A DNA stretch of 64,000 nucleotides from Psammoneis japonica (GCA_008632985.1 QPGO01000002.1:992001-1056000), one strand, 5' to 3'; counted from the first letter of the stretch, positions 1,885-28,180 are shown. Program-made: numbers and translations. Notes: generated by a model not told the origin, from the letters alone.

Positions 1885-2530
1885 TCGTGGCGTAGCTTGA
1901 AAGGAACCATTTGCTTTCTTCACAACCAACCCGTCATTTTGCAAATCTTCCACGAGACCAGGAAAATCTGATAGACCACAGTTGACTTGATTTGCAATTC
2001 TGCGAAAGTCGTCCCTTTTCTACCCATTTGCTCCAACGCTTCTACAAACGCCTTTTTGTTACCCGTCACTCTAATGTTGCTACTGCCGCCACCGCTTTCG
2101 TCTGCGTGTGCTTTTTCATGGTCATGAGTTCCACAACGTCGACAGCGCTTTCTTTCACTGCGTGTTCCCGAAGACAGGCCTTGGCTTGCGCTTGTGAAAG
2201 CCCAATCAATGCTTCCAATTGTGGTGCAGTAATTTGAACTGTGTAGTTCTTGCTGGATGAATCCCAATCGGGACACCTGCACAACAAGTAAAAGTCAAGT
2301 CAGTGAGCTGAGATTGGGACACGAGTGCTGTTAAAACATCGTCGTGTCGCACCGCAGCTTCACATGGTAAAGCAGTCCTCTAGAACCGCTGCAGCCCCCA
2401 TGCGTAAGTTTGAGCTTGCTGTGCTTTCTCGCATGTGAAATGCAGTTGCAAGCCAAATCAGCAGGGAGTTGCTCCTGTTGAAATCCAATCACCCAGACGA
2501 GCCAGCCCTTGGGTTTTTCCGAATCAACGT
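1885..2530 (-). pseudogene. MCM8: Decayed duplicate of the MCM8 3' end
   Basis: Aligns to about 35245-35932 (ITAPQLEALIGLSQAQAK vs ITTRQLEALIRLSQARAK; DLACNCISHARKHSK vs DLVRDYISYAREYCK) with frameshifts and deletions; homology stops at about 2530. Confidence 0.85.
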
Positions 2531-3160
2531 TGTGTGGCTTTTGCAAGTGTTGGACCAGTTCTCACAGCTTTTCCACTGGCCAATGTGTGTCGTTCCACTC
2601 AGCTGGCCCCAAGATGCGCACGCAGGCCAGCGTTGTTCATGTCAGCAGGAAGTTTTCACTTCGCACCATCGTTCAGTGAGGTCAATTTCACTGCTCAGCC
2701 CTGGTCTCAATCAAAGAGCAAGGCTCCCCACTGATGATTTCTTCCCCAAGGTGCCACTCATCTTGACATCACCTTTGTTGCCACTCTTTCCCTTCCCTGA
2801 CACGCAAGCTCAGCTCAGCTCTCAGCTCTGCTCTTGTGCTCCCTGCACGAAAACTGAAACCACGCACACTGCAAGGAGTTGGGCATCTGTCCATCACTGT
2901 GTCACTGTGCGGCAACACCGACAACCCATCAAAGGCGAGTTGCAGGGAGATGGATTTGCACGACCATTGCTTTGCATCATAAAAATTGAAGCTAAAAAAT
3001 GTGAGAATAAGATTGGATTTGATCACTGAAAAATGACCCAAAAAGTCCGTCATTACTGTACATAAGACTATTATCTCCGGGCATATGTTTTGAAGGTCAT
3101 TTCCTTTTATATAAGTTTTATGAAAGACTTTAATCAACCCTGACATTTTGACGGGGCTTA
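2531..3160. mobile_element. Unclassified degraded repeat truncating the MCM8 duplicate
   Basis: TpA-poor to about 2980, like the other TE islands; no recognisable protein motif. Confidence 0.3.
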
Positions 3161-8668: not shown

Positions 8669-8919
8669 CCTCGAATCAAACATAGATGTTGCTATAGATG
8701 CACCTTCGACTAGCTACAGGTTGTTTCAGCACATTGAAAGAGTTAATTTTCGCATCTCTAGTGGTCGTATCGTACGGAACGTCCCGGTCCGTGAAATGTG
8801 AATTTTGGTTGACTGATGATTCGAATCGAGCTTGGTCGTGAAACCGTCGAAGTGTCGTTCCAAAGGAGGATGCCTTTGACATTTTTTATTTCGCAGGAAG
8901 ATCAGCACAAAAAGCAAGT

Positions 8920-10870
8920 AGGCACCAAAGAGTGTGAATCCTGTGGTTGGACAGGGTTCTCAGGGAAATGCCCAACCAGCCAACCAAAGTCAAGAATGAG
9001 GACGAGGTTCTGCACCCAATGCTGTCAGTGTGCCAGGAGTGTTGGTGGTGCACCTTGGCAGCCAGTGGTGACTCAGGGGGAGTGCCATCCCCAGTCATTC
9101 ACACTTGCAATGATTTTCATGCCACCACCTCAAAGGACCCTCCATCAGAGGAAGCAAGACAAGGCCATGGCACCCTCCCCAAGCACATCTCAGCAGCATC
9201 TGAGCACAACAGGTCAGTGGTCACTGTGCACTGCTGTTTGGCAGCAGTTTTGCAAGGGCCTGGTGAGGTGCAGGGTTGTGCCACTCCTGTGTTTTGAGAT
9301 GCCCGGCAACTGCTGCACTCTGGGCTTGCATCCCCAGGTGCCTTGCAATGGCAACACATGCCCGCCTTGGCTGGGGACATGAACACATGTGTCTTGGTGG
9401 ATTGCCAGTGCCACCAGCAAGCCCACTTGTTGACCCAAGTGACTCTTTTTCTGTCAAAGCATGCACCACCCAGTCTGAGTGCATGTGTGCTTTTTGCCCA
9501 TGAGGCTGCTTTTGCTGGTGCCTCTTTCGCCAGAGGCTGTGCTCATGAAAGTCCATCATGGAGCCAGCACAACTGTGTGCTGCCAGCCAAGAAGTTGCCG
9601 CCAGTGCTCCCAGATTTCCCAAAGGCAGCTTGTGTGGCCACCACAGCAGACCCCAAGATGTCTGCCACCACCCAAGATTGGCCAGCCATTCAATCACAAC
9701 CCCAACTCAGACCTGCCAGATTGGCTGTGCACTGCTCTCTGCCAGCAGCAAGTTCATCATCCCATGGTGCAAGCCATTGACAACTTTGCCATTGAGCAGC
9801 ATGCCAATGTCTTTTTTGTCAGGCCATTGCTCTCCATGATTGTCACCCAGAAGCACAATCACTTGCACCAGCAGTGATTTTTGTTCACAGCTTCAATGGC
9901 TTTGCACCCGTTGTTGCCTCTTTATTTTGTTTCAATGCAACCCAACTGTGCAGTCCAAGCCCTGGCACCTGTGGACTCTGTTGCCTGTGCTGGTGCACTC
10001 TTTTATGATGTCAGCACTGCAAAGCATGCTGTCCAACACAGTGTTGCCATTGCAGCAGACACTGCCTCCAGCGGCTTGCTCGCACATTTCTTGAAAATGT
10101 CAAAGATCCCATCTTCTTCCTAAAGTCTTCATCTCAGCATCAAACTGGTGTCACTGCAAGGCAACCCTGTTGATGTGTGCACCACCAAGGATTCCATGCA
10201 GCAGGTTGGTGTTTGCTGTGAAGGAGTCTTTGGAAACATTTCCCACCCCAAGGCACCAGCATGCTGAACTTCCAACCAAATTGCCAAATCAGTTGCTGCT
10301 GCAAGAAACAACAAGACTCAGCTCCCAAGAGTGCAAAGCTGGCCTCTGAAGCTGTTGCTGATGTGCACCATCATTTTTAATGCACCCAGGCCAGCATGCC
10401 ACAGCTCTCTCTGAAACCCCCTCACATGACTCCTGGGCAACACCTGCTTGGCTGCTGGCAGTGTTTGTCCAGACATCTTCCTTGAGGCTGCCCTTGCACC
10501 TCTCCATTGCCAACTTGTTCATGGCAAGGCAGCTGGACTGGGCCCATCCAGCCACCCCAAACCCTGTCCCACTTGAGCCCCACTCTGTTGTGTGTTGCAT
10601 CAGGGAGAGAGCTCCTGTGGCACCACACATGACACACCCATGCAGGCCCACTTTTGAGAATGGCCAGCAGCACATCAGAGTGCACGAAATGTCAAAAATG
10701 TGCAGATTTACATGATGACAATTTGTGAAAACACTGCAAAATGTTGTTGTCGTGTGATGACAGGCCAACCTCTGGTTGCAAGTTTGGTGCACCAATGTTG
10801 CAACAACTTGTCAAGAATTGTGCATGCTGTTTTTCACTGTGTCCACATCACCATTTCTGCCTCCACCTTG
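8920..10870 (-). mobile_element. Heavily eroded element, possibly a non-LTR retrotransposon (RNase H and 3' region)
   Basis: Near-total TpA and CpG loss; faint minus-strand relics (AATD..GALGW, VCCNG, LLNGKVV, DSIGC) resemble diatom LINE RNase H and C-terminal motifs. Confidence 0.3.
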
Positions 10871-10969
10871 TTGCCACATGCCAATGCATGATTGCATTGC
10901 CACACAAACCTTGGTTTGTTAATTTTCGTAAACATCATTTTAAACGAGAAAAACATTTCATCAGTTGAG

Positions 10970-11761
10970 TCAATTCCTTGTTGTGTCTGCAGTGCAATGA
11001 CCGAGTGCTGTGTCAACTGTGTGCACATTTTCTTGCTGCAACTCTCTTAAACTGAGCCAACAATCATCATCAGACTCGTCTTCATTGGACTCGTCTTCAT
11101 CGGATTCGTCTCCTCCGTTGTTTGTTTTTCCTTTTGCGCCTTCCTCCTGCTCATCGTCGTCACCATTGTCATCCCTGCTGCTCTCCACCATCAGGCTGTT
11201 CATTGCCTTCACCTTCTCCGCATCACCGGTCGGTGCCATCTTCTTCTTCTTTTTTGCTTCTCCGGACTTCTCGCACTCGCTTTTCTTGATCTCCGCATGT
11301 CACTTTTCAAACTCCTTGCCCTCCTTGGAGTCTCTGTCTTTCGTCACCTCTTTGCACAAATCGTTGAACCAAATGATTCCGTCGTCTCCCCAAGACACTC
11401 GTTGTTTCTTTGGCTTCGTGCACCGAGGGGCAGGCCTTGTTTCTTCGGGCTCCATTTCCTCGCCCAATTCTTCCACCACCTCCTCCTTGTTCCTGCATGC
11501 CCACACCTGCCAACAATTCTCTACAGCTGACAGCGCCAAAGCTTCGTCACCCACCGCAAACAACTGTGAGACCTGTGCATTCCCAGTTTTGATGGTGCGA
11601 CTCCATGCCTGCTTTTGCTTGGTTTGAGGTAGGATGTGATCACAGAACCACTTGCATGCCTGCTTGTTCCTTTGTTTGCCGCCGGTGACAGTGTCCAGGC
11701 TAAACGGATCCCATGTCGGCACAAACGGGAGACTTGTTCCAGACTTAGGTGGCGCGCACAT
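10970..11761 (-). mobile_element. Degraded accessory ORF of a diatom DNA-transposon-type repeat
   Basis: Pattern VGDEALAL..VEN.W..W...P.CT....SWGDDGI.WFN.LC..V..DR...F with an acidic tail recalls a repeated TE-associated diatom ORF; TpA-depleted and broken by stops. Confidence 0.45.
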
Positions 11762-12065
11762 CCCCCTTTTCGCAGAAAAAATAATTTTTTAATGCTTCAT
11801 TGAACACCACACATGTTTGATAAAATTGATCATGTCAATGGCTTGTGAGGAAAATAAACAGAATAAACTCGAACAAACAAACAGCCAAACCGGCCTTTTA
11901 GCAGCGCAGGGGGAAGGACAGACACATCCACCCCCCAATGCATGCAGCCTTGAACGACCTGAATGCCAATGGCATTCTTTGCAACTCGTCGCCGCCTGCC
12001 GAGGCAGCAGCAGCAGCTGCAAACTTTTTGACAAAGGGAGCGACATGCGCCAACCTTGTCTCTGG

Positions 12066-14104
12066 ATGGCTGCTGTCCCTCCTGCAGTCGCCGGTGGAGC
12101 GCCTCCGGCACCCCCAAAAACATGCCACGACAAGTGGATGACCCAAGGCGATCACTTGGGAGGGGAGCACACGAATTTATTCCGTCGACACGATGCCACC
12201 GTCGCTGCTCCCAAGCCGGCCGCTACGCTGCTCGAGCACACCATCGACTCGAGCGACGTGGCACCCAAGGCCTTTTTGGTGCCAGTGCGCCAAGGCACGG
12301 GGTGCCGGATTACCTGCATCCACCGGCCCTCGGTTTACATAAGAGACCCGGTGGAGACCTCGCTGTGGGACGGTCGTGTGTTCTGTTTTCAAGGAGATGT
12401 GCTGCCGGGTAACTTCGCTGCCATCTTCGAGTTGCCCAACACTCCGTTTGAAACTGTGGGTCCACAAGTGGCACCTGCGGTGGCCAACATGGCCGCCCCA
12501 GAAGGCACTCTGGTGGATGAAGAGGAATTGGTGAGGTGCCCCATGCCTGTCTGCATCTTGTGCTGAACCGGGATCTCACTCCTCTACAGGCCTGGCGGGA
12601 ACTCGCAGGAGCAATCCAAAACGACGGACGTGCGGGGGACTTGAGTCCCCTCATCGACTGGTTGCGCGCGGCACTCACCACCGACACAGCGGCGAATCCA
12701 GATCCGGTTCAGTGTGTGGGTGATCGTGCCACCGCCTTGCCACCACTTGCGGTGGACGCCTGCCTGCAGGAGCATCGCTGGCGTGCGTTGTTACAGGACC
12801 TTCCCGCCCTGGATACAACGGCCGTAGACAACACCGACCGGGTGCTGGCTTTCGCCAACATGGTCCGCGCCGATGCAGCACGTGCGGAAGCAACACGTTC
12901 CGCAGCGGCGGCAGCGGCCGCCACCTCCAAAACTCCGACGGAAGCCTTCCCGCAGACTGCGCCCGTGTGGCTCTTGCTTTCGAGTGCACCGGATGATGCG
13001 GCTTTACCCGCGCTGTGCCACGCCTGGGCCAACAGCACCAAAGCCGAGCGGCGCCTGTGTTTTGCTCGCGCTTTGGAAGCTCGCGCTCAAGAGCCTGACG
13101 CGGCGTCCCGTGTGGCGCCCACAGTCTCCAAGGAGTTGTACGAGATGGTGTTGCAAGGGAAGGTAGCACCTCACATGCACCAAGTGAACGATTTGACCGC
13201 CGGCGTCTCCCCATTCACGTGCGGCTTCTTTTTGGCTGGACAAGGCTCCACTGTACAAGTCCGGGCCGAACGCTACGACCTCGCGTTGGCTGGCAACTTG
13301 ACGCCTGCCGTTGCGGAACAGGAGGAGTTCCGCACCAAGGACACACCTCTTCCCACGTCCACTTGCCATTGCGGAAGCATGCTTCAAGCTGCCAGTCTGG
13401 CATTGGACGTCATCCAAGGATCGAATCACCCCCATGCTGTGGCATTCTGGCAGTTCTGCTTGGAAGATTGGCGAGACATGGTCGACCTCCTCGAACAATC
13501 GGGAGCACTCCTGGCTGAGGGGAACGCACTTCCCCGAATCTGTCGCGAGGTGCAGATGCTCATGGGAGTCTACCTGCACAGGCTCACGCAAGGTGGTGTA
13601 CCCCGGGTGCCCGACTGCACCGCTGTGGCGCACAAGGTGCTCCACGGACAATTCTCCTTGCTGGCACAGTTGCCACACCATTTGCTTGGCCAACCAGAGC
13701 AGACAACCAATTCCCAGGCGAGCTCAACCAGCGCCAGCAACAGTGGCACCCCTTCCGCGGCTGCCGCCGCTGCGGGACGTTGCGACCCGGGTGCGGCCGT
13801 TACGAATCCCAACCCGGTGCGGTCCTGGCTGACGGCCTTTGCACAAGCCGGGATCCGCCTGGCTACGGTCCGACGTTTCGCACCCCGAACCACGGATTCA
13901 AGTGGCACCGCATGTGAAGTGTGCCTTTCCCATCACCTAAAAGGAACGTGCTTCGCCAACTGTGAGCGTGGCAACACGCACCGGAACCTCTCGCCACGAG
14001 AGAGGACGGCTGTGAGCGCGTTCGTTTGGGACCACGTGTCCAATCCCCAAGAAGGTGGCGCCCCAGCTCCGGCACCCGCGCCGGTGCCGGCGGCCTCCAC
14101 CTGA
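12066..14104 (+). pseudogene. Ngaro gag-like ORF1 (frameshift near 12540)
   Basis: Two overlapping ORFs; C-terminal zinc-finger-like CLSHHLKGTCFANCERGNTH; positioned before pol. Confidence 0.7.
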
Positions 14105-14155
14105 GGACGGGGGCCGGTCAGCCCTGAGGCTGGCCTGCAGCCCTCCTCTGCCTGC

Positions 14156-16141
14156 TTGCCAGATCCGCACCAGCAGTGTCCACGCAGCAACGAACTAGGC
14201 AAGTTGGTGGAGGACCATGTCAAACTCTTACAAACTTTAGGCTGGAGCCAGTTCGTTGCACACCTGCGCAGGGAGCCGTGTCTGGCCGAAAATGTTTGGC
14301 AGCTACCCCACCCAGCTGCCGAGTTACTTTCTAAACTCCGCAACGATGGAGCACCGGTCCAGTTTTCAACGGAAGACTGGTCCCCTCACCAGGTCCGGAT
14401 GGCGACCGACCGTGGGAGCCATCCGTCCACTCACGAGCACCTGGGCTTCCTCGAATCGGACATGGTGGACATGATCCAGAAACGACACTGGACAGTCCTG
14501 CCTTGCCGCGAAGCCTGCAAGCTCCCCCACCTGCGTGTCTCACCGATGGGCGTGGTGCCGCAACGCGACCGCCGCCCGCGCACCATCGTTGATTGCAGCC
14601 ATTGCGGTCTCAACGACGAGACTGTTGAGCACGCCCCTCCAGAAGCCATGCAATTCGGTCGAGCTCTCGACAGGTTCTTGCACAACATCTTCCGTGCAGA
14701 CCCGAAGCACGGCCCGGCACACATGCTCAAGCTTGACCTTTCCGATGGGTTCCATCGCGTCGGGCTGCGACCCCAGGACATGCCCAAGCTCGGGGTGGCC
14801 TTCCCAGTGGGCCCAGGGGAGGAACCGCTGACAGCGCTGCCTCTCGTCCTGCCCATGGGCTGGACTGAGAGTCCGCCATTCTTTTGTGTGGGCACCGAGA
14901 CGGTGATTGACTTGGCGAACAGCTGCTCACCCACAGCTTGGGACCCTCCGGTTCATCCCTTAGAACAGGCAGCGGCCACTCCAGCGCCTCATGACAACAC
15001 CTTGCGCATCGACGTGCCGCCGCCTTCCAGTGCAGCTCCGACTGGCCGCGCATCACGCCTTCCTCCTCCCGCTGCTCTCCGTTGCAGACCCCGACGGGGC
15101 TCTCAGCCATTAGAGCACTTCGATGTCTATGTCGATGATGAAACATGCGCCGCACAAGGAACAAAGGCTCGTCTCAACAAGCTACGTTGACGCCTCTTAC
15201 ACATCAGCGATCAAGTCTTCCGTCCCAACACACCGTCTGACGAGCACTGGCGGCGTGAAACCATTTCGCTAAAGAAACTCCTCAAAGGCGACGCGTCGTG
15301 GTCGACGGTGAAGGTCATTTTGGGGTGGCTCATAGACACACTAGCCGGGACTGTCGAGTTGCCGCCGCATCGTCGACAACGCCTCCTTGATGTTCTGGCC
15401 GACACCATCCCTCGCCGCCGCATGTCCAACAAACAATGCTGCAAACTTCTCAGCAAAGTCCGCAGCATGTTGTTAGCGGCATCCGGTGGTGCGGGCCTTC
15501 TCTCCAACCTCCAGCACTCTCTTGCCACCTCTGGTAACTCCCGCACTCGCATTGACCGCCATGCGCGTCGCCAGCTCCAAGATTTGCACACCTTGGCCGT
15601 GGACATTGTCTCGCGTCCCACTCGGCTGGCTGAACTCTTCCCTGCTGCCGACGGGCACTTCTGCGGGGCGTGCGACGCAGCAAAACCTGGGTTTGGCGGC
15701 GTCCTGTTGCCTGGCCCTCAAGACGACTTCCCTCCTGCCGCCTGGCAAGTTCCGTTGCCTCTAGACCTGCAAGCCGCCATTGTTTCGGACGACAACCCTA
15801 CAGGCACCACAACAAACTCCGACCTCGAGCTAGCCGGCACAGTGCTGCAAGAGGCCGTCGTCGGCATCGCCGTCGACGTCAGGGAACGCACCGTCCACAC
15901 ATGCTGCGACAACACGCCTGCCATTTCCCGGCGCGGAAAAGGCTCTGTCACAACCAACGGCCCCGGCGCCGATGTGCTGCGGACGGGGAGCCTACAACAA
16001 CGGCAGCTCCGACACGTCTCCCGCTTCCATTGCATTCCTGGCCCAGCCAATCTCCTCGCAGACACGTGCTCCCGAAAATTTTCCACGCCGTCTCACCTTC
16101 TTGCTGTGCTTGCTCGCCTTGCCCCACAGACGAAACCTTGA
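14156..16141 (+). pseudogene. Ngaro reverse transcriptase-RNase H (premature TGA at 15188-15190)
   Basis: SPMGVVPQRDRRPRTIVD, KLDLSDGF, LPMGWTESPPFF, YVDD, ILGW; RNase H CDAA..GGV, NSDLELAG, DNTPA, ADTCSR. Confidence 0.92.
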
Positions 16142-17285
16142 CAAATGCCACACCCGCTGCCAGACATCGTTTCTTCACTGATCTCCGCCTTGCGACGGCA
16201 AAAGCCCACGAAGCTGTCACTGGCGAGTGCGCCCGTGCCACGGACACCGTCTGGGCCAAGTGTTGGTTGCCTTTCCTGTCCAACATCGGAGTCGAAGACC
16301 CTCTCCTCACCGGTGTCCAAGACAAAATCCCGATGCTCCAAGTCTTTGCCTGTCATCTTAGGGATGGATGCCTCAGCTGCAGCGGCAACCCAATCTCAGC
16401 TCCGCACGTTCGTGACGAAGTCCTTCACATCACGAAGACGTTCACCGAACTGAGGGCCCCGGACCCGCGGCTAACGCCACACGGCACTGTGGATCCTCGC
16501 CTCACTCGCCTTTGCAGTGCGCACTCCAAAGACGATCCGCCGCCGAACCGCGTCAAGCCTCTGCCGATCCAAATCGTGCACCACGCACAAGCCCTTGTCG
16601 ATGAATCTTCCGCCCTCGACAACGCCATCATCGACATGTCCTGGATCGGCCTTTTCTACCTTCTCCGACCGGGGGAGCATTGCAAGAGCAAAGACAATGA
16701 CCCTTTGGTTCTCAAAGACATCAAACTGCTCGTCGGACAACGCGCACTTGACCACTTGACCTGCCCCCTGCAACAGCTGTTCCTCGCGACACACAGTGGC
16801 ATTGCGTTTGACACTCAAAACATGCTAGAAGCTCTCACTCCAAGGCATGCCCGGTCCTCGCCATCGCCCGCCGTGTGCATTGCCTTCGTTCCAACGGCGC
16901 CAACGCTAACACCCCCCTGTGTGCTGTGCGCCTCGGTGCGCGTTGCGGTCATGTCACGAGCCGTGCCACCACCAAAATGCTCCAAGTGTCAGCTGCTGCC
17001 TTGCCACATTTAGGATTCCTGCCGAAAGATGTCACAGCCCGCAGCCTCCGCGCCGGCGGCGCCATGGCCCTGCTGTGCGCAAAAGTGGACACCGACATCA
17101 TCCGTCTTGTCGGCCACTGGAAATCCGATGCTGTGTTTCGACACCTTCACGCCCAAGCATTGCCATTGACAGCAGGACCATCTACGAAAATCCTGAACTG
17201 CGGCAATTTCACACTGCTCCCAGGGTCCGATGTCCCTCCCATTGCGCAAAACATCATCAATCAAGCCAACGCACCCACCAACTGA
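16130..17285 (+). pseudogene. Ngaro tyrosine recombinase (frameshift near 16820, catalytic Tyr replaced by His)
   Basis: FYLLRPGE, ARSLRAGGAMAL, LVGHWKSDAVFRHLH versus the usual GRW.SDA..RYL. Confidence 0.88.
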
Positions 17286-18539
17286 TGCGTCCACGCCTTC
17301 ACCCACCCTCAGCTCTGCTTCTGGCCCATCCCCTTTTTCCTTGTCGGCCCTCCAAGAGTGGCGGATCGGAGGCGGTCTCGGTTGCTGGTGAGCCCAAAGA
17401 GGGCAAGAAACCCCAGCAAAGCGCTGCTGACACCACCAACCACCGCCTCCCAACTGTGGTGGGACACACCCCCCAGCAGTGTTGGTGGCGAACAGCCATT
17501 TTAGCAGTGCAGGGGGAAGGACAGACGCATCCACCCCCCAACGCACGCAGCCTTGAACGACCTGAATGCCAGCGGCATTCTTTGCAAGCGGCGAGGCCGC
17601 AGCAGCAGTTGCAAACTTTTTGACCCTCCACTCCCACCCAGCCGCCTCATCGGAGGCGGTCTCGGTTGCTGGTGAGCCCAAAGAGGGCAAGAAACCCCAG
17701 CAAAGTGCTGACACCACCAACCACCGCCTCCCAACTGCAGTGGGACGCACCCCCCAGCAGCGTTGGTGGCGAACAGCCAATGGCTTTCAGTGACCATGAC
17801 GGCCCACTTTTTTCAGCCTTGTGGAAAATTGAATGTCATGACCAGGATCTCCGTATTTAATGTAGTCTGTGTCATCAACAACAACAGTGAAAATGCTTGT
17901 TGAAGGCTGCAGCGCGGCACAACAATGCCAAATCTGTCAGCAACAACAATTGAGCCTCTGTTCACTCACAATTTGCCTCTAAGGACCATTTCTTTTCTAT
18001 TGCCATGTACATTTCCTCAACCCATTCGACTGATTCAAGTGTGTCAATCGTTTGTGCCTTTTAAACCGTGAAAAATGGTCGGAAGTCGACGCCATTGCGT
18101 GGGCTGAGCTACAGTGCACTTCTTCTCACGTCGTCCTAAACTTGTTAATCAACGAATGCTTTATTCGATCCGTTGAGTGTAACTCGTATTCGCGCATGAA
18201 AACAAAATGTTAATTGTGCTATGTTAAAGACTTAATTTACACATGTTAATAACATTTTATGTGTTTCTTGTTACATTGGGGCATGTGTAGATCGCTCATC
18301 GGAAAATTCGAGCTCTCAACTTACGGTGCAATTTAGCGACTAATAACTAACTGAGTCCATCAACAGTTTCGTATACATGGGTACACGCACAAGACAATTC
18401 TGCATGTTTGTTATGTTTTTACTGTCGAAAATGGCACCGCAAGTGTGGACCGCGCGTTTCATGCAAAAAGGGTCATTTTTTCGCGCGTGAGTGCACCTGA
18501 GTCTGGAACAAGTCGGGATGTCATTCTCTTCATTCTTGT

Positions 18540-21500
18540 CACGGCTTGACTTTTTCCTGTTTTGCTTTTTCCTCCTGACTGCCGCCTTGAGTTTCTTTTC
18601 TTTTTCCTTTCCCTCTTCCTTGGTGACAACGCCTGTGCAGATAAAGCATCACACCGTCATCTTCTTGTGAGACGCACGCAACTCTCGAATCACACACATT
18701 GGTCACTTGACTTGCGGGCCATTGCCTCCGCCCCAACAGCCGAACACACCGTGTTTCTGCAATTGTTGATTTGCCTTTTTACCGCCATTCCTCCCAAGTT
18801 CCTGACCAATTTGAAGTGTCCATGTTGCCACCAGCAATCTGTTTCTTGAAAAACATTGAGACACTCCCATTGCTTGCCAATTCTGATGGACTGAGAAACT
18901 TCACCTGTGGAAAGAGATCATTTCTAGCCACCTTCTCTACTTCTGATTTCAGTGCACCATGTGCTGCCTGCGTGCCTGTTCTCTTCAACGCTGCCTGAAG
19001 TCTCGGGCTCATTGGCTTGACAGTCTCATTTTTCTTTCTCTTCTTTGCCAGTGGTGCTGGAGACGACATCTTGATCTTCACACGGCAACGATGAGAGCAG
19101 TGTTGCTGTTCGACAGTGCAACCGTCGTCTGGGTCGTGTTGAGACAGCCAGCCACTCCATTTTTCTCTGTGACATTGCATGGGTCATTGTCAGTGACGTT
19201 GAAATTTGAAAATGTGTTCACACATGACAATGAACAGTCCAACTTGCTTTTTGACATGGCTGTCATTGCGTTCCAACGGAGACAATGTCCTTTGTTTTGA
19301 CAGTGAATAAAAAAGAACAACATTCATTGCAAATGCCAGATAAAAAATCAAAATGCAGACACGTCACACCCACAAGAATCATCCAAATCTGGAGGACAAT
19401 GTAATGTTTGGCATTTTCCCGCCATTTTTTGCATGTTGTTCTTCTTTTCCCTTCTCATCCACAAGACAAGGACGATGAGCATGAGTCTTGATGAAGGCCC
19501 TGTCAACATTGACCAGAGAACTGTGAGGCAATGGCATCAGCGTGCAGACTTGGTCAGTCGCTGGCAGCTTGATCACAAACGAAACAACTGGCTTTCAACG
19601 CCTGAGAAGACTCAGTGCTCACCCAAGTTACGGGTTGTCCCTGTCGAAGCAATTGGGGACAATGTTTTGGTTTATGAACAATGTCCAGGAGCAGCAGAAG
19701 CACAAGAAAAGGCCCCATTTGTTTGGGCTGCACAGGACAGAAGGAAGTGTTGGTCAGATTTGTTTCTAAAATGGGACGTGCGTCTGGATCTGTCATTCAC
19801 TCACAGTGATTGCCCAACTCTTTCTTGCAAACATGATGAATTTGATCCTTTCAGAATTGGCAAAGTCATTGCAGCACATGTGAAGCAGTGAGGTGCCAGC
19901 ACCTTCCGTTGCTTTTGTTCTGATGTCTTCTTCGGAAACTCCAAGATGAGCTTCTTCCTGATCGGAAGGCTTTCCCAACCACCGTTCTCGATGTTCTTGG
20001 GTTGCAAGGTTGCTTGCAAAGAACACACTCGCACGGCTCTTTGCAGCATCCTTGTCCATTGTGCATGTGTCGAACACAGCCAATAATTTCTTCCATTGTT
20101 TGACAACCTGGAAGAAGGTTGCAAGAGCAAAGGGAAAAATCACTGTGTCCCCCCCTTCTTCGTTTTTGGAGAGCAAGGCCCAAAGATCAACCAGATTTTG
20201 GAAAAATTGAGTCGTCCCAAAACGACTGTCGCACCACTCTCCATCTGGCATCCAGCAGCAGTCCAACATGATTTGGTCGAACCCATGATCATCAAAATCA
20301 ACAAGTTTCTCAAACTGCTGCTTGACTCTCTTGACGAAATCTCTTGCTTTCACATTGCAATTTAAGTGCAGATCAGGATGTCCATCTTGGAGAGAAACTG
20401 TCAGAACGACATTTGTGACTGTTTTGTCAGATTCCTCAAATGCCATTGCGCGGGCCTCGTCTCGCCTGTGTTGGTCGGACGACACTGAGGCCACCCCCTT
20501 CTCAGAGCACAATTCTTGAGAAGACAGTTGCCTTGCATTGAGCGGACGGGTCATCCCCAACCACAGCACATTGTGTGTTTCCCCGTTAGTTTCGTCACTT
20601 GCGAAACAATCTCCTAAGTCTCTATGGTCCTCTTCAAACTTGGAGCAATGTGCAACTTGGTTGTGCTCATTGTCAACAGGCTCTTCGCTTTTGTCCTCTT
20701 CACCCATGTAAGTTGTAGGAAGTTCACTTGTTTTCTTGTCAATTGACTCCTCCTCGCAATCGTCACTTTTGTTCATTGTGAATGACAACAAATCACCGGC
20801 GGCCTTCTTCCTGTTAGAACGAGAAATCAATGTGACAATGTCAGCACAATCAGACAAAAAACAAATGTGATTGCCATGAAAAAGCAACCTCTCTTTGCCA
20901 TTCCAGTTTGGCTCGAACTTCATCAATCGTCACGAATGGGACTGGCTCCCATTCACACCTTCCAAGGCCACTTGATCATTGATTGCCCATCAGAGAACAA
21001 GAGCAACAGATGCTGTCCGTGACAAAAGACATCGCAGATTCCCATCTTTTCATGAGCTGCACTCAGGTCACATGGCAAAGACTCTGGACCATTCTTTCCA
21101 CAGTCTTCCAAATCAAAATCACCCTCCATCCGTTCCAAGAGTAAATCGTGCTCCTCCACCGGGACCTTCATTTCCTCCATTTGCTTTGCCGCTCCCAACT
21201 TGGCTGCCGGATAGACAAGATTGCAAAGGTCAAGGTGAGGATGGATCCCTGTGCCACACAGCATCAACATCTGTGTAGAGTTCATGCATCTGAACTCTCC
21301 ACAATCAGCACCTGCATGATCCCATGTTTGGACCATGGTTTGAAACACATCCTCGATCGCCTTGTGGCCAAACGTTGGCTTGCCAACATTGTCATTGATC
21401 CAGTCAATGAGAACAACCAGTCTGCCAACAAGCAAATCCATCAAACCATTGAGTTTCGTCCCGCACTCTGCCACATGAACCTCCTCGAAATCGAGTCCCA

Positions 21501-24500
21501 GGCTCTGCATGCGTCGGTTGTTGCGATCCCCCACAATGCTGCCAAATGGCCTCGCAGCTTCTCTGAAGCAATGAAGGACATGATCGCCAGCCACAAAAGG
21601 ATGCTTCACAGCATCTGTGTTGCACAACAAGCAGCAAAAACGAGAGAATCTGGTTTGACACCCAGCCACAATGGTGTGACGAAAGCAATCGTGTGCACCA
21701 ACCTCATCGAGGTTGTCGATGATTGCCGAACAACCGCACGATAAATCAAAGTCCTCCACGATGGCAAACGGAAACGTTTCCTGGCATGACAACAACGGGG
21801 TGCTTGACTGTGTCGGACGGAAGATTTGGCTTGCCAATTTCCTCTTCCACCCACACAGAGTGAGGGTCAAGGAAAAAATCTTTGATGTTTCTGTGGGTTG
21901 GCTTGCCCAACGGAGGACGACAAGGGCCATGGCATCTCATCATTTCTGCAGTGTGTGACAGATCAAGTTTTGCGAAATGACCATGCACACGCGATCGGAA
22001 CTCGGCATGCCCATGTGCCGAACTGACATGGTTTCCAGCATTGCCTTTGGATGCAGTGACAACCTTCAATGACCAAGAGCGACCAACAGCATCTCGCAGT
22101 GATGAGCAAAGAGCACCAGTCTTGGTGCACCCATCCATGTCACAATCCTCTTTGTCAATGTGCAGCTCGGTGTCCGAATTAATGGATTTTTTGCCGGATG
22201 ACGAGATGCACTTAACTTGAATTTCCATGCCTTCCCTTCTAACATGCTTGGCTCCAACCATCTTATGGAGCTCAGCTGCAAAAAGACTGTCACGGTGCGG
22301 GTCATGGAAGGAACGCATTTCTTTCAATGCAACAAGATTAATTTGTCCTTGCAGAGTTGCGTGGCATCCAAGATTGAGGCCATCATCACCTGCACATCCT
22401 TTGGAAGCTTCTCCCGCTTGTCCCTGCCAAAGACAGCACCAGGCTTGTGAGTGGGTCCCACTTCAGCAACTCACCGTCTGCGACTTCGTAATTCTGGCCA
22501 CAACAACCAAAACAGATCCGACAGCGCAACTTGCATTCTGGTCCATCCCTTTTTTTGTTCGGCTCGCCATGTTCCAACACTGCACGGAGTGTTGACAACA
22601 CACTGAATCGCAATCCAAAAAAGCATTTCTGATGCATCTTGTCCGTGTGTCGCAAATGAGTGACCGCATCGGAAAAATGAAGGTTGACTGGGTCGGGCAA
22701 GTGATCGCAACCATCGATTCTTGCGTCGGATCATTGGGAGCCACGCCGTTTTCAAATCCATGCACAAACTTGCAGAGGTGATTCACCAAGCAGAAATCGG
22801 AGATGCTGTGGAATGACTGGTGCTTGACACAGTTCCCCTTGAAGGAACCAGAAATGGGGGTTTCCTCAAAGACGACAAGGTGAGAATGTTGTGACTTCAC
22901 CTCACCCGGAATCGCAAACGGAGATGGTTCAGGAAACACTTTCACAAGCTCTTCTTTTGTGAAATTGTCTGGCGGAGGAGGAGGCGACTGACAAGTCGTA
23001 CCAAGGGTCGGCCACTTTGTTCGGGAATGTTCAAATTGTTCCTTGAGAGTCGGCACATCTTGGAGAATCAGCAATTTGTTCTGAGAAACATCAGAAGGTT
23101 CACCATCTTTGGGGTTTTTGAGACTGGGGCTTGAGGAGCAAAGGGAGGCGGCTAAAGAGGTGGCAAGAAAAACAGAAGAATTAGAGACAAGAAGAGGAGC
23201 ACAAACAATCAATCAAACAACATGATGGATTCACACCATTTGGATTTTTTCGTTTCCGAGCATTTTTTGCAACGGATGGAATTGCATTGCTGATTTCTTT
23301 CTTCTTGCACTGAGTGGCAAAGTCACGAAGCCTGGCTTTCCACATGGCCTCAAAACGATCCCTTGCAGCCTTGCTTTTGCCGGAATCGTCAGCGGCAGAA
23401 ACCACACGATCAATTTTCACACATCTTAAAAGAGTCTCATCAACATGTGTTGCACACATTTGTTCTCGCTCGACATCGAGCATCGCCAGTCGCATGTGTT
23501 GGCGGAACAATGACTTTACGAATTCAGAGAAGGACATGGGGCATTCGTCTTTGGTTGTCTCATGGTGACCAAGAGCCAGGAAATTCTCCAAAAAGTTGAT
23601 GCAAGTTGATGTCTCGTCACATTCGCCGAACAGGGAGCACAGCCAACAATCGCAATCACCATTCCCCTCAGGTGCGCACGGCAGAATCTTGTCACAAAGA
23701 ATCAAAAAACCAATGTGAAGGTGAAAAAACCTTCCCTTCAAAACTTCTCAGCTCAATGTGCTTGACAAGCGGCTCTCCCTTTGGGTCGCACAATCCGGGA
23801 TCATGGAGAAGCTTGCACAACATGGAAATCTTTGCCATCATGTTGGTTGCAATGTCTGTTGATTTTGCCTTGTCGCCGATGACTTTCACATCCTCTGCTT
23901 TGGGAGCACGGCGATGCTCCAATGCATGAGGATGTTTGGCACCTTGACTGGAATGACTCCATCCTTTTGCGGAAAGAAAGTGCAGCAAGCTCTTGTGCCC
24001 AAGTTCCTTTGCAACAATGCGGTTCACAGCCATCAGTTCCACAAAAAAATGAGGTCTGCCCTTCGACTTTTGCCACACATGGGCAAGCGCGATCCAATTC
24101 GGAGAGGGATCACAAGTGGAATTGCGGTGAAACTGAACCTTGGATGTCACCGTCTCGATTGTCGCTTTGACACGGCTCCGCTCGTTGCTGTCGATCACTC
24201 CAAAACCGTTGGCAAAGAGAGATTCAAAAACGGCCTCCTCGAGGTGGGAATCATTGTTGTCTTGCGACAGAGAGGCGACCGACAGGTCACGTGGCGCCAT
24301 GGTTGCTGTTCCAACACCAAAAAATCTGGTTTCTGCAGAAATGCACCAGAGTGGTGTGTGGGAGAAGTTGCATGTGCGCCTGGTGTGATTTGGAGTTTTA
24401 AACACAAAAACCCACCAGACGCGTGTGTGACTTCTCCCAGGGAAATCCTGCGTGAGATTATGCCGGGAAAGGGCAATGCGGAGTGCAGAATTGATGGAAG

Positions 24501-27500
24501 AAAATGTTGTGCGGAACAGCATCAGGAGAAAGGGTGTGTGCACTGGAAAACAACATGGACTTCCACATGCACGTTAAGGTGCGTGAAAAACACGTGGGTG
24601 CCTTCAAGTGACGCATGCGAACAATCACAAAGAAACATCCGGAAATGGAGACAGCATGGAGAGAAGTCAGAAACATGGATCCAAAACAAAGTGACACAAC
24701 AGAAAAAACAACAACAACAAGAGATGAAGGCAACGGCAATGGGATTGATGAAAAAGAAGGATTCAGATGGAAAGACACCAGAGACGGTGAAAACAGGCGG
24801 CGCCAAGACGAGGAAGGAAGAGAAAAACAGGACGGGCAAAATGAAGAAAGACAAAAAGAAGCCGACAACATGACGTCAAGAGGGGAGCAGCGATGCGATT
24901 CAGCGTTTCGAGGGACCTCTTCCTCTCGATGATGTTCACCCAAATGCAAGAAATGCAGTGTGGCTTTTTTGGAACGGTGACGAGGAAACATCCAATGCGG
25001 CAGCGGTGCATTTGAAATTCTTGCAAGAGAGCGGACAAGACACATGGAATGAAGAGGACGATGCGGACGACCAGGCAAATTGGAGCACAGTTGTTGATTA
25101 AATAATTGGTGCACACTTTGCATGATGAAAATTTCATTGCATGCAATTGCAATGTTTGGCTTGTCGTTAAAGATTGTCAGTTGTTGTGAAAAAGGCAGAG
25201 CACAAAAATTAAAAAACATCTGTGTTCAAACATGAAGAACAGCAGGAGATCAATGATCAACTAAATGACAAAGACTGTCATGTGCAGACAAGCAGATTTT
25301 ATAATGTGGCAGTGTGTTTTTATCATGTGTGCAGATGTTGCTGTGTCGTGCACTCTGATGCACCCACTTGCATCACTCAAGCACTCCAAGCTGCTGCCAC
25401 AGCATTGGGCCCAGCAAATTTGCTGGGTTCAGCCCCCAAACTCAGATGAGATGTTGCACTGCCTGCTGCGTTTGCAGGTGCTGAGCCTGTCATTTCACCT
25501 GGCACTCAAGCTTTAAGTGGCAACTTCACTTTGCATCAAAACAATGATGTGCCCCCATTGCCCATGAGAACTCTCATGACTCTTGAGCTCTGCAGCCCTC
25601 CTGCAGCCTGACTCACCCTCTCATCCCTGACTCTCTCTTGACCCACACAAGCTGCACCACTGCCTGCTCATTGTGGGTGAAACCCAGCAGCCCTGCTCTG
25701 TCTGCCTTTGGGTCCAAGAGAACAAGCTTCCCACTGATCTTGCACAGCACCATTGCTCTGCTCCATGCGCTGTGCATCTGCCAGCCATCTGTGTTTTGCT
25801 TTAGAGAGAGCAGGCAAGTTGGGGATGATTCAACAAATTCTGGCAGCAGCCAGTTCCCAAGATGTCACAAAGAGGAGCAAAACTGTCAAGGAACAGCACT
25901 TGGGACAAAAAAAGATTGGCTCCTCCTCTGATGGAGCAGCACTTGCCAGAGTTCTTGAAAAGCACAAGCAGACTGTGAACCAAATCTCACATGAAAGAAA
26001 TGCACCAGCCAGAGACAAGGGGACAAGAGAGATTTTGGAATTGCTGCAGAGGGTGCAGTGCAAGCCTCAAGAAGTTGAGTTTGTCAACCAACCATTGTGG
26101 AAGGTGCTCAAGGATCTTTTTCACGGCACCAAAAAAAGCTCACACCTGCCACCTGAGGTGTTTGGACTTGTCAAACAACACCACTGTGGAGAGACAATGG
26201 AGACATTGCAATCAATTATGCCTTTTGGGAAGAGCCAGCCACGACATTGTGAAACTCACATCTCTGTGGCATCCAAAGTGTTGGCAATGAAATCAAGCAT
26301 GTGTTTGTAAAGAATGTTCTGAGAAACTTCTTTGAAGCATGTTCACTTTCACAAAAAGCATGCCAACAAGTGGTTGGGAAACAATGTTCCACTTGCTCTT
26401 CATTCAACCCAAGAACAAGACTGGACGAAGCTGTCAGAAGTTGACAATTGGGCACAGGTGTGTTGGCCAACACAGTGCTCACCCCCCCTGCTCTTTTCTT
26501 GCTGCCAGCCCCCCCCAGAAAAAACTGGATGGTTGTGCTTCATGTCCTCTTGACTTCAGCTCCCAACTTTCCCATGCAAAGCCAACAGTGGGAGTTGACA
26601 ACATGGCACTCTTCCTTGTTCTTCTCACCAGCAGTGCTCTTGAAATGAAACGACAAGGTCAGCAGCACATCAAAAGCTCCAAGTTAAATGCTGTTCTGCA
26701 TGCAGAGTTGGGGGCAAAACTCATGTGATGTGCACCTCCTCAGCTGTCTGCCATGTGGAGCTTGCTGGCCAGTGAGCCAAAAACTGCTGAACAGCCAGGT
26801 GCCTTTTTTGCACAGCTGCACATGCCAAAATTGTGAGCCTCCATGCAAATCTGCTCAGTGCATTGACAAAAAGCTCTTTGTTTGTGCACCAACTGTGATC
26901 CAGCGATGCCACAAACTAGAATGCCCAGCTCACAACAGCCAGCCCAGCAGCTCCACTGCCAAACAAAATGGGAGCACAGCTGCCTCCAAATGCCAGGTTG
27001 GAGAACAAGGTCAGTGCAGGTTAAAAAACAAGTTTTGCTCAAACAACTCCAAGGATTGAGCAAGAACAGACAACAAAACAGAGGACTCTGGGAGTTGCTG
27101 AGCAGATGATGACTGACTTGGGCTGGCATCTTCATTGCCAGCCAGCACTTGCTCCTTTGCACAAAAGAAGTGCTTGTCATGAGAGTCATGTGGGCTGGTG
27201 TGTGCACAAAACAGATGCATTTGGTTGAGATCACTCGAGTGCTTGTTGAGTGCTGGCAGCAGCGCATGTGCACTGGCTGCTCCCTTGTTCTCTCCACTGT
27301 GCAGCAGAGGACAGCTTGGGCATCATTGGCTTTTCCCCTGCCTGTGCCAAGCAGCAAAGTGGCTGACAGCAATTTGGTGGGCTGCAAGTCGAAAATCCTC
27401 ACACCACCCAAGCACTTTGAAGGGCAACAAAGTGCAGCTGCTTTGTTGGGGACAAACACACCAGCACTTTGGACCCCCAAAAGTCAGCAGCAAGGTGCTG

Positions 27501-27830
27501 AGGCAATGTGCCATGTTGTTGTTGGGGAGGATGAGGGGGAAAACTTGTGAGCTTTCTGAGCTCTGGTGGACAGGGTGGCAAGGTCACCCCCCTGTTTCCG
27601 CCCAGCATGGGCGCGCCAGTTTCTGAGTGGCAGGTGTGTGTGAGGCTGGTGTTGCAATGTTGTTTGCAATGGCTGGCAGAGTTTGGCCGGCTTGGTTTGC
27701 TGGGGTTTCTTTGCTTGGGTTTTTCTTGGCCTTTGCTCAGCTCCGCATCGAGCTGCTGGCTGGCACAGCCTTTTTTTGGGAGTTTGATTGGGAGGTTCGA
27801 AGTTCCTGTTGGTGTGATGAGCCCACACAT
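18540..27830. mobile_element. Large TpA-depleted block of decayed multi-ORF repeat(s), unclassified
   Basis: Chain of broken protein-like minus-strand ORFs (18779-19180, 19793-20926, 20953-24543), rich in Cys/His and nearly lacking Tyr; 25220-27800 has also lost most CpG. No family motif recognised. Confidence 0.5.
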
Positions 27831-28180
27831 GTGGCAAGACTAAAAAAATTGAAAAAAATGAGTCCTTTGTCCACCCATGCCAAGCAAACCACCCGAGCGG
27901 TTTTGAGCCTGTTGTTGTGATGAGCCCACTCTTGGCGAGACTCAAAAAATTGCAAACCACCCGAGAGGTTTTGATCGGTTCGGAAAAATTGAACTTTCGC
28001 GCGCAGCGCGAACTTTCGGCGAAAGTTGCCCCCTTTTGGAGCGCGAAGCGCTCCAACTTTCGGCTGAAAGTTGGGAAACGGAGGGGGCGCGCGGAGGAAA
28101 AAAAGTTCGTCCGTTGAATCTTGGCTGTGAATCGTGAGAGTGCGTTAAGTCGTGCGTCAAGTCGTGCGTTGAGTCGTCTT
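27810..28180. repeat. Cluster of hairpins and short repeats, probable element terminus
   Basis: Hairpins 28011-28027, 28036-28056 (TTGGAGCGC-GAA-GCGCTCCAA) and 28053-28074; GCAAACCACCCGAG.GGTTTTGA twice; 12-mer GTGCGTYRAGTC three times at about 28140-28175. Confidence 0.8.

Follow-up and report, generated by a model that had tools for sequence, protein, structure and literature searches.

The 64,000-base stretch of DNA analysed here (the window) was shown by its host genes to be nuclear DNA of a diatom-like stramenopile, and it raises the question of what has removed the dinucleotide TpA from discrete parts of it. The observed/expected ratio (o/e) of TpA was 0.02-0.2 in eight sharply bounded blocks, comprising about 19 kb at 8.9-27.9 kb and five smaller islands, compared with 0.58 in the background. 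In these blocks, the o/e of TG and CA reached 1.5-2.0, the remaining twelve dinucleotides were nearly constant, and CpG had also fallen to 0.1-0.2 in the oldest-looking blocks. The 1-kb windows at 9-11, 19-22, 25-28, 54-55, 57-59, and 62 kb showed TA o/e of 0.00-0.17 and mean TG/CA o/e of 1.51-2.03. When the dinucleotides of the most extreme blocks (13.4 kb) and the background (30 kb) were pooled, the o/e values were 0.07 and 0.58 for TA, 0.18 and 0.94 for CG, 1.76 and 1.19 for CA, and 1.83 and 1.15 for TG, respectively, and the 12 others shifted by at most 0.2. Pyrimidine-purine steps accounted for 23.9% of dinucleotides in both sets, indicating that the loss of TA and CG equals the gain of CA and TG; the CpG deficit of the islands is thus likewise offset by TpG/CpA gain. 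Simulated conversion of TA and CG in background DNA gave 1.95 for CA and 1.86 for TG (observed, 1.76 and 1.83). The GC content was 0.50 in the islands and 0.47 in the background.

The window was segmented with a hidden Markov model (HMM) on pyrimidine-purine steps, the log-likelihood of which was -12194 with one state, -11567 with two, and -11402 with three. The resulting islands (2420-2969, 8915-27952 with two interruptions, 38675-39289, 54075-55698, 57010-60169, and 62100-63558) match almost to the base those of the initial annotation, which had described TpA-poor, TG/CA-rich islands beside DNA that keeps TpA. Their edges are sharp: TA o/e was 0.12 in the 100 bases just inside and 0.49-0.61 outside at every distance. 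The claim that 8921-9922 holds no TA was exact, since the TA at 8919 is followed by no other before 9923; about 1000 TA-free bases have a chance of about 1e-18 at the background frequency of 0.040 TA per position. Five further TA-free runs of about 800-1280 bases each were found in the window. We give a sequencing or assembly artefact a negligible chance. No support for it was found, the sole run set with the sequence being possibly the assembly's own source. In separately assembled contigs, the blocks recurred with a single difference over 1254 bases (a contig over 8548-9801) and 8 over 896, an agreement that is not independent because the contigs' sequencing run may be the window's own assembly sample. 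In addition, the changes obey codon logic against 150 homologues, and the borders fall on insertion joints.

Table 1. Features of the window and their TpA-related composition (counts are from the HMM segmentation).
Feature	Coordinates	Strand	Observations
NADPH-oxidase-like gene copy A, end and 3' flank	1601..2535	+	TpA loss climbs toward the island edge; compared with copy B (33355-35930)
Small TpA-free island adjoining gene copy A	2420..2969		TA 0, CG 17, TG+CA 115
Left single-copy block	8903..10762		TpA and CpG both nearly gone; left of repeat nest; HMM block 8903-11066: TA 10, CG 13, TG+CA 531
High-copy unclassified repeat, left part	10762..11890	-	Split by the DIRS-like insertion; depth 11,000-18,500 over 10669-12002
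DIRS-like tyrosine-recombinase retroelement	11890..17780	+	Nested in the high-copy repeat; GC 0.61; depth 380-800
High-copy unclassified repeat, right part	17780..25134	-	Depth 3,000-19,800; minus-strand ORF run nearly without Tyr
Right single-copy block	25134..27891		TpA and CpG both nearly gone; right of repeat nest; HMM block 25081-27891: TA 16, CG 19, TG+CA 632
Small island with two diverged tandem duplications	38675..39527		
TpA- and CpG-poor island	54075..55698		TA 5, CG 16, TG+CA 362; TA-free run of 1277 bases
TpA- and CpG-poor island	57010..60169		TA 6, CG 43, TG+CA 694; TA-free run of 1200 bases
TpA- and CpG-poor island	62100..63558		TA 9, CG 17, TG+CA 323

The composition of the islands is very probably of mutational origin and not native. 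All substitutions considered here are fixed differences, no de novo mutation having been observed, and their direction was read from two comparisons. In the first, gene copies A and B were aligned over 1601-2560, where 21 of 42 TpA sites of copy B had become TG or CA in copy A, whereas the reverse had occurred at 1 of 25 (binomial p 1e-5). The loss in successive bins toward the island was 5/17, 3/8, 8/11, and 5/6, and over 1-1600 the copies were symmetric (7 vs 7). The open reading frame of copy A is intact and 95% identical to copy B, and the signature enters the 3' flank of this host gene by about 800 bases. Homology between the copies stops near 2535, and the rest of the adjoining island has no counterpart in copy B. 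CpG polarisation between the two copies was not significant, either overall (16/61 vs 8/51, p 0.25) or nearest the island (9/20 vs 2/12, p 0.14).

In the second comparison, the polyprotein of the DIRS-like element was set against 150 homologues and agreed with their consensus at 455 of 573 columns. Tyr was kept at 3 of its 14 columns and was replaced by Cys at 4 and by His at 3 (Fisher p 4e-6). Among the 118 mismatching columns, TA-to-TG/CA changes explain 16, divided equally in the sense orientation between TA-to-TG (8) and TA-to-CA (8), while A>G or T>C in other contexts explains only 7. In the recombinase frame of the same element, a C-terminal Tyr invariant in 29 of 29 homologues, which by its position is the putative nucleophile, has become His (CAC), an Arg present in 30 of 30 has become His (CAC) by a CpG-type change, and a Met present in 28 of 30 has become Val (tATG to tGTG). 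TpA-to-TpG/CpA transition on both strands, as proposed in the initial annotation, is thereby upheld by paralogue and homologue alike, and the claim of Cys or His at expected Tyr was borne out for this one element.

These data bear on the rival possibility that the elements and blocks arrived TA-poor and TG/CA-rich, or had acquired their mutations in a previous host, with no mutation in place. Comparison with other copies lends it some weight: in the 40 of 1788 window-versus-contig rows in which every contig differed from the window, a selection biased against sites mutated in parallel, the window had TG or CA where other copies have CG in 19 and TG where they have TA in 3. Most TpA loss in the repeats is therefore common to the copies and may predate their amplification instead of having struck each copy in place. 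Furthermore, the high-copy repeat, whose 378-amino-acid frame returned 1 homologue, offers no outside relatives for polarisation. Against a native composition stand the 21-to-1 loss in the gene flank and the conserved Tyr residues turned to Cys or His. The initial annotation had itself named a TpA-free element family as a refutation, and the DIRS-like relatives on which this was checked do not form one: TA o/e in 80 related metagenome loci had a median of 0.63 and a minimum of 0.44 (0/80 below 0.3), compared with 0.21 in the window copy. Duplicates within an island also alternate between CA and TG. Interchanges among TA, CG, TG, and CA make up 12 of 14 mismatches between 38921-39036 and 39088-39205 and 18 of 24 between 39327-39466 and 39474-39614, and 10 CA-to-TG double changes were found in such internal duplicates. 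One junction is represented by two contig variants, which show CA against TG at 3 sites and TA against TG at 1. In the gene flank and in the DIRS-like element, a native composition already stands contradicted, and we judge it very unlikely overall.

Copy number was read from contig depth with matches at 80% likeness or more, so that copies diverged by more than 20% would go undetected, and on this scale the neighbouring repeat reached depths in the thousands, compared with about 52-55 over 8668-10668 and 56-62 over 26010-28000. One 2686-base contig spans 25282-27967. Pfam searches of open reading frames in the left block gave no match, and no recognisable coding remnant was found in 8.9-10.7 kb or 25.3-27.9 kb. 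The description of the islands as derived from transposable elements was substantiated at 10.7-25.1 kb by the repeat depth, the insertion joints, and homology to reverse transcriptase and recombinase, and not in these two single-copy blocks. In the nest, other copies of the high-copy repeat have an empty site (joints 11889/11895 to 17780), and a joint from 25134 to 10762 marks head-to-tail copies. The minus-strand frames of this repeat contain 0-0.3% Tyr, 2.7-6.0% Cys, and 3.2-7.6% His.

The inserted element is DIRS-like, combining a reverse transcriptase with a tyrosine recombinase and not with a DDE integrase. Its frame at 12545-16138 has 5155 relatives and 2 TGA stops, one of which (15188) is CGA in other copies. 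RVT_1 matched the window frame weakly (E 0.003) and 5 of 8 scanned homologues at E 6e-6 to 6e-4, all below the Pfam cut-off, and the translation contains a YVDD box. For ORF 16812-17282, the tyrosine recombinase identity was not recovered by sequence methods alone; a model of one full-length homologue of its family (pLDDT 89.5) is predicted to fold like Cre recombinase (Foldseek E 2.6e-6, TM 0.59/0.70). Terminal direct repeats pair 11888-12032 with 17491-17624 and 17365-17498 with 17649-17779.

TG and CA were equal in number and unclustered in 7 blocks (runs test z -0.96 to +1.07), and the DIRS-like element had 438 TG and 534 CA (z -0.08). These results indicate a process acting on duplex DNA and not on a transcript. 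They bear directly on the idea that retroelement transcripts underwent A-to-I hyper-editing as double-stranded RNA before their edited copies were integrated. One affected element is indeed a retroelement, and the sequence context seen here is like the 5' U preference of ADAR-type enzymes, a likeness remarked on in the initial annotation and in the Discussion of a preprint on Bigelowiella natans (Mettrop et al., bioRxiv 10.64898/2026.01.13.699255). However, the sense-oriented retroelement lacks strand bias in both its codon changes and its TG/CA counts, and the signature is also present in DNA that never passed through reverse transcription, namely the single-copy blocks and the host gene flank. 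To our knowledge, ADAR is confined to animals. The symmetric signature in DNA other than retroelements refutes RNA editing as the general cause, and we regard it as highly improbable.

The effect is restricted to separate domains that look silent and have mobile elements among their contents, in agreement with the initial annotation. Its further statement that repeats are the target held in part: the mobile-element nest is included, but the two most extreme blocks are single-copy and about 800 bases of host gene flank were hit. Domain or chromatin targeting thus fits better than repeat recognition. Fungal RIP is similar in being a regional, irreversible point-mutation defence that places transitions in mobile elements, in its dinucleotide footprint, and in possible leakage into neighbouring unique DNA. 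RIP nevertheless converts CpA to TpA and raises TpA and AT, whereas in the islands TpA has been erased with GC the same or slightly up; the opposite direction claimed at the outset was confirmed by the depleted TpA and enriched CpA of the islands. In addition, RIP requires duplicated sequence, and the most strongly depleted blocks have single-copy depth when matches of 80% likeness or more are counted. Fungal RIP was rejected, as there is no TpA excess or AT enrichment and single-copy blocks are hit.

The closest precedent is that of B. natans. The initial annotation knew of no described system of this kind, but the preprint by Mettrop et al. describes exactly such a signature: TpA-to-TpG/CpA hypermutation arose de novo in mutation-accumulation lines, and 230 of 231 mutations in two integrated viral regions were A>G or T>C, all stated to be on TpA. 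Its genomic footprint is clustered 1-kb windows depleted in TpA and enriched in CpA+TpG (consecutive windows, with rho of at most 0.43 for TpA and at least 1.52 for CpA+TpG), and its TpA-depleted genes are enriched in reverse-transcriptase and transposase domains. The TpA-poor 1-kb windows listed above lie within these cut-offs, and the substitutions, here fixed differences, likewise hit TpA on both strands as A>G or T>C. In both cases, discrete regions of foreign or silent DNA are affected, those of foreign origin here being the mobile elements at 10.7-25.1 kb, beside single-copy blocks without recognisable genes and the host gene flank. From these likenesses to the preprint's account, we infer the same kind of targeted TpA hypermutation. 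The two cases differ in several respects. B. natans is a rhizarian, on another supergroup branch from the present host. Depletion here is near-complete (o/e 0.02-0.1), compared with rho 0.45 in the active giant-virus region of B. natans. Integrated virus is the target there, whereas here the DIRS-like retroelement, the high-copy repeat, the single-copy blocks, and the flank of a host gene are hit, and the window yielded no viral genes. CpG is also lost here and is absent from the main text of the preprint, and the mutations of B. natans are de novo, whereas those of the window are known from fixed differences alone. To date, B. natans is the only other alga from which the signature has been reported, which makes the diatom a second, unrelated lineage.

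We consider it fairly probable that the window records domain-confined TpA hypermutation of the B. natans type, with adenine deamination as the likeliest chemistry. A local process has very probably turned nearly every 5'-TA-3' within discrete domains to TG or CA (A-to-G on either strand), altering duplex DNA in place, site by site and equally on both strands. The mobile-element nest and adjoining single-copy DNA have been struck together, and at the domain borders the effect ends within about 100-250 bases. An enzyme may deaminate adenine after T in silent-marked chromatin, preferring TAT/TAC over TAA, and inosine would then pair with C at replication; this adenine-deaminase step is put forward tentatively. 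Adenosine deaminases (ADAR, TadA/ADAT2-3) prefer a 5' U/T neighbour, and the natural target of TadA/ADAT is tRNA A34, which always follows U33. Transition hypermutation by APOBEC3 and ADAR likewise disables invading sequence. ADAR, however, works on RNA, and APOBEC produces strand-coordinated C-to-T clusters on single-stranded DNA, whereas the changes here are A-to-G on duplex DNA without strand coordination. The predicted outcome is irreversible inactivation of mobile-element genes through Tyr-to-Cys/His changes, loss of the recombinase Tyr, and stops.

TpA has been lost faster than CpG. The DIRS-like element, as the most recent insert, lost TpA only (TA o/e 0.21, CG o/e 0.87), the high-copy repeat at 18435-25080 lost TpA and some CpG (0.08 and 0.65), and the outer blocks lost both; wherever CG o/e dropped below 0.5 in a 1-kb window, TA o/e there was at most 0.34. 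The simplest source of the added CpG loss, which may be ordinary decay, is deamination of 5-methylcytosine in methylated silent DNA. Repeat methylation in diatoms is cited in PMC6604790. The low CpG of the older blocks with TpG/CpA gain resembles this deamination, and one metagenome relative shows CpG loss alone (CG 0.20, TA 0.61); it cannot, however, remove TpA, the loss of which is earlier and goes further in the window.

Thymine might instead be the target, the T of TpA in silent chromatin being oxidised to 5-hydroxymethyl- or 5-formyluracil by a TET/JBP-type dioxygenase and mispairing with G (T-to-C). The products would be the same as those of adenine deamination, with strand symmetry expected; 5-formyluracil is mutagenic toward T-to-C, and the hydroxymethyluracil of dinoflagellates is said to favour TpA. 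Since the same enzyme class acts on 5-methylcytosine, the losses of TpA and CpG, the latter seen only within TpA-depleted domains, could be united as one attack on 5-methylpyrimidine-purine steps. This is unlikely: the TpA/CpG ratios of 0.21/0.87, 0.08/0.65, and 0.07/0.18 across the blocks fit two separately timed processes better.

Surviving TpA was over-represented in TTAA (4.3x) and CTAA (2.5x) and nearly missing from ATAT (0) and ATAC (0.11x) (context chi-square p 3e-16). The sparing of TAA relative to TAT/TAC is equally compatible with adenine and thymine chemistry. Finally, a patch of about 480 bases (17975-18455) with normal TA is enclosed by the TpA-depleted repeat, which indicates that location by itself is not enough to bring about the signature or that the process is episodic.

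Averaged over the whole window, the observed/expected (o/e) ratio of TpA was 0.38 and those of CA and TG were 1.36 and 1.31, values that mask two classes of DNA. A hidden Markov model of the pyrimidine-purine steps, each classed as TA, CG or TG/CA, separated islands, in which TA and CG made up 1.9% and 9% of these steps, from a background in which they made up 14-17% and 22-25%, respectively. The islands described in the initial annotation matched this segmentation almost exactly, the stretch from 8921 to 9922 that it had reported as free of TA contained none (chance approximately 1e-18 at the background TA rate), and its observation of TpA depletion as a whole was confirmed. A three-state model gave a better fit and split the islands into blocks that had lost only TpA (TA 3.4%, CG 29%) and blocks that had lost both dinucleotides (TA 1.8%, CG 4.9%, TG/CA 93%). 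In pooled counts, the differences between islands and background were limited to the four pyrimidine-purine dinucleotides, with o/e ratios of 0.07 versus 0.58 for TA, 0.18 versus 0.94 for CG, 1.76 versus 1.19 for CA, and 1.83 versus 1.15 for TG. These dinucleotides summed to 23.9% in both classes, and the gain of CA and TG equals the loss of TA and CG. Simulated conversion of TA and CG in background DNA gave o/e ratios of 1.95 for CA and 1.86 for TG.

Positions, contig depth and composition of features in the window
Feature	Position (strand)	Contig depth	TA o/e	CG o/e
Island	2420-2969
Island, with two interruptions	8915-27952
Island	38675-39289
Island	54075-55698
Island	57010-60169
Island	62100-63558
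Single-copy segment	8668-10668	~52-62
High-copy repeat segment	10669-12002	11,000-18,500
Moderate-copy element segment	12003-17338	380-800
High-copy repeat segment	17339-25342	3,000-19,800
Single-copy segment	26010-28000	~52-62
Inner insert (DIRS-like)	11890-17780 (+)		0.21	0.87
High-copy repeat	10762-11890, 17780-25134 (-)		0.08	0.65
Outer single-copy blocks	8903-10762, 25134-27891		0.02-0.1	~0.1
TA-normal patch	17975-18455
487-aa frame over right border (rejected)	26743-28203 (-)
NADPH-oxidase-like gene, copy A	1-2535
NADPH-oxidase-like gene, copy B	33355-35930
RusA domain	28794-28976 (+)
Upstream part of RusA gene, other frame	28354-28866
402-aa ORF	41687-42895 (+)		0.16	0.92
Inverted duplication, two arms	38108-38642, 40929-41521

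Copy number over 8-28 kb was measured from the depth of contigs of the only run set that contains the sequence, possibly the source of the window assembly itself; no RNA run set with the sequence is listed. Among these contigs, other copies run straight from 11889/11895 to 17780, which identifies the GC-rich segment as an insertion into the high-copy repeat. Other copies also link 25134 to 10762 through a filler of approximately 37 bases; copies of the high-copy repeat thus lie head to tail, which suggests tandem arrays or circular forms. The inserted element carries terminal direct repeats and a 1198-residue frame with two TGA stops, 5155 relatives (best 53% identity), and weak reverse-transcriptase matches. 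A family of 163 hits includes its downstream ORF, and the model of this family folds like Cre recombinase. Based on the reverse-transcriptase matches and this fold, the element is classified as a DIRS-like tyrosine-recombinase retroelement. The fold search decided the recombinase identity; Pfam Phage_integrase matched 2 of 31 members of the recombinase family (E 0.047), and the family profile had no match among PDB sequences. The only Pfam match among 24 + 24 + 104 translated ORFs from the islands and their surroundings was a weak one to RVT_1. The high-copy repeat is left unclassified, its 378-aa ORF having one homologue and no Atlas lead (best score 0.78), and Pfam and ORF checks found no recognisable genes in the two outer blocks. 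The 487-aa frame over the right border was rejected as low-complexity junk. The degree of decay parallels the nesting order, increasing from the insert through the high-copy repeat to the outer blocks.

A patch of approximately 480 bases with normal TA density (30 TA) lies within the TA-depleted high-copy repeat and is missing from some contigs, where 17977 is followed by 18456. It probably represents a small, later insertion that escaped the process. The patch weakens the case, in that either the insertion was very recent or the process is episodic.

A mutational origin of the islands is well supported by five independent tests on fixed differences, none of them seen to arise de novo. Copies A and B of the NADPH-oxidase-like gene (EF-hand and FAD-binding domains), each with its 3' flank, form a segmental duplication; both ORFs are intact, with 95% protein identity. 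Divergence between the copies rises from approximately 4% to 28% toward the island that begins at 2420. Over positions 1-1600 of copy A, TA-versus-TG/CA differences were symmetric (7 versus 7). Over 1601-2560, 21 of 42 TpA sites of copy B were TG or CA in copy A, and the reverse held at 1 of 25 (p 1e-5). The corresponding CpG asymmetry between these copies (16/61 versus 8/51) was not significant.

The DIRS-like polyprotein was compared with 150 homologues in query-anchored BLASTP columns; a MAFFT alignment of 151 mixed fragments was too poor for use, with 2930 columns and only 1 of 6 Tyr columns kept. The consensus residue was retained at 455 of 573 agreed columns (79%) and at 3 of 14 Tyr columns, where Cys was found at 4 and His at 3 (p 4e-6). 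Among the 118 mismatches, 16 fit a single TA-to-TG/CA change, 13 were of the CpG type, and A>G or T>C in any other context accounted for only 7. In the recombinase ORF, His (CAC) stands in place of a Tyr shared by 29 of 29 homologues and, again as CAC, in place of an invariant Arg, and Val replaces a Met by a change of tATG to tGTG. The ORFs of the high-copy repeat contain 0-0.3% Tyr, with Cys and His raised. Native TA-poverty of the family is contradicted by 80 related elements from metagenomes (median TA o/e 0.63, minimum 0.44, none below 0.3), although the finder relies on conserved peptides and may miss mutated copies. One metagenome locus (L070) showed CpG loss alone (CG 0.20, TA 0.61). 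One protein of the representative library (P0255) has 0.3% Tyr overall and Cys or His at three of the six Tyr columns that it covers. It alone carries the signature among 128 polyprotein homologues covering at least 6 Tyr-rich columns, which indicates that another hypermutated copy is present in public data.

Duplicates within the islands differ mostly by TA/CG/TG/CA interchanges, ten of which are CA-versus-TG double changes, as expected if an ancestral TA or CG had different outcomes in the two copies. The pattern recurs between two contig variants of one junction. The window and the contigs differ at 1788 positions, 40 of which were listed with a bias to places where the window stands apart from every other copy; TA was involved in only 3 of these 40, and 19 were private CpG-decay cases of the window copy. 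Most TpA loss in the repeats is therefore common to the copies and may have occurred before they spread. Within the single-copy block, three sites distinguish the window from contigs of the same sample, one TG/TA and two CA/CG sites (9070, 10139 and 10153). These may be haplotype differences, in which case the process was active after the haplotypes split.

TG and CA were equally frequent and not clustered in runs in seven blocks (z -0.96 to +1.07), and in the sense-oriented retroelement TA-to-TG and TA-to-CA changes explained eight columns each. This lack of strand bias argues against transcript editing and against processive action on one exposed strand, and favours site-by-site action on duplex DNA. 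The borders are sharp, with a TA o/e of 0.12 within the first 100 bases inside and 0.49-0.61 at every distance outside. Averaged across all borders, no outward gradient of TpA loss was found; the gradient in copy A is therefore a single case of visible spread. Among surviving TpA sites, TTAA (4.3-fold) and CTAA (2.5-fold) were spared, and no ATAT was left and ATAC was reduced to 0.11-fold (p 3e-16 for the whole pattern); A followed by T or C is thus the preferred target. CpG loss was confined to TpA-depleted DNA, and the ratio of TpA to CpG loss differed between blocks. We therefore read the pattern as two processes on the same domains, a fast TpA process and a slower CpG decay.

The mechanism that we favour would be adenine deamination at TpA in marked chromatin, with 5-methylcytosine decay proceeding in parallel. 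Thymine modification at TpA would be an alternative route, with the same footprint as adenine deamination. The initial annotation knew of no described system, a claim that needs correcting: a 2026 preprint on Bigelowiella natans (10.64898/2026.01.13.699255) describes the same signature. There, 230 of 231 new mutations of mutation-accumulation lines in integrated giant-virus and virophage regions are A>G or T>C, all stated to fall on TpA, at approximately 6e-7 per site per generation in those regions, and an ADAT2-like protein, candidate Bn78255, is put forward as the enzyme. The window passes the cut-offs given there. It differs in its diatom-like host, its near saturation, and the involvement of both mobile elements and single-copy DNA; it also adds CpG loss, of which the main text of the preprint makes no mention. 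Fungal RIP is a functional analogue that runs the opposite way and depends on repeats, and the window shows neither its direction nor this dependence. The link to repeats drawn in the initial annotation needs correcting. Literature searches turned up no report of a TpA-to-TpG/CpA signature in diatoms. Mutation-accumulation work on Phaeodactylum (PMC6604790) found the usual GC-to-AT bias; the accessible part of that paper does not mention TpA hypermutation.

TpA-directed hypermutation has to date been described from one organism, by a single 2026 preprint. We assign the window to a second lineage with this kind of system. The saturated signature on mobile elements in a diatom-like genome suggests either an ancient process that is common across these algal lineages or two separate origins. 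A second lineage makes the enzyme hunt practical, as candidates narrow to genes shared by two lineages and diatoms have genetic tools. For annotation, the signature matters as well: saturation eliminates Tyr codons together with two of the three stops, so that saturated targets contain long spurious ORFs without homology, and such targets may account for some of the unannotatable, repeat-free 'dark' DNA of genomes like this one. A natural duplex-DNA adenine deaminase, if real, would be of interest for base editing. We consider it unlikely, if worth stating, that diatoms and chlorarachniophytes share one enzyme-driven defence that edits duplex DNA of silent chromatin at self-complementary pyrimidine-purine steps, turning TpA and CpG into TpG/CpA. 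Such a single system would rest either on one DNA deaminase for both adenine and cytosine or on an attack directed at 5-methylpyrimidines. It would constitute a widespread counterpart of RIP running the opposite way, overlooked because saturated targets lose all recognisable homology.

The host genes of the window comprise two NADPH-oxidase-like paralogues, an MCM8-like helicase, two DnaJ proteins and a glycosyltransferase; an Rfam search of the window gave no match. The MCM8-like ORF has 231 relatives (best 50-57% identical), and the named ones among the best 120 of the 231 are all diatoms (Nitzschia, Pseudo-nitzschia, Mayamaea, Phaeodactylum, Fistulifera and others). Immediately beyond the right end of the large island is a RusA-type Holliday-junction resolvase domain (Pfam RusA, E 8.7e-10), the gene of which appears to be divided over two frames by an intron or a frameshift. 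The 402-aa ORF is intact and TpA-poor with normal CpG, and contains 0.5% Tyr and 4.2% His; its only Pfam match was a sub-threshold DUF5523 (E 0.006). It may be a gene that passed through the TpA process with its frame kept, or may merely have an unusual composition. The small island at 38.7-39.5 kb lies between the arms of an inverted duplication (84% and 75% identity). On their outer sides the arms adjoin the start of the MCM8-like gene and that of the 402-aa ORF, and the duplication may represent a duplicated promoter region.
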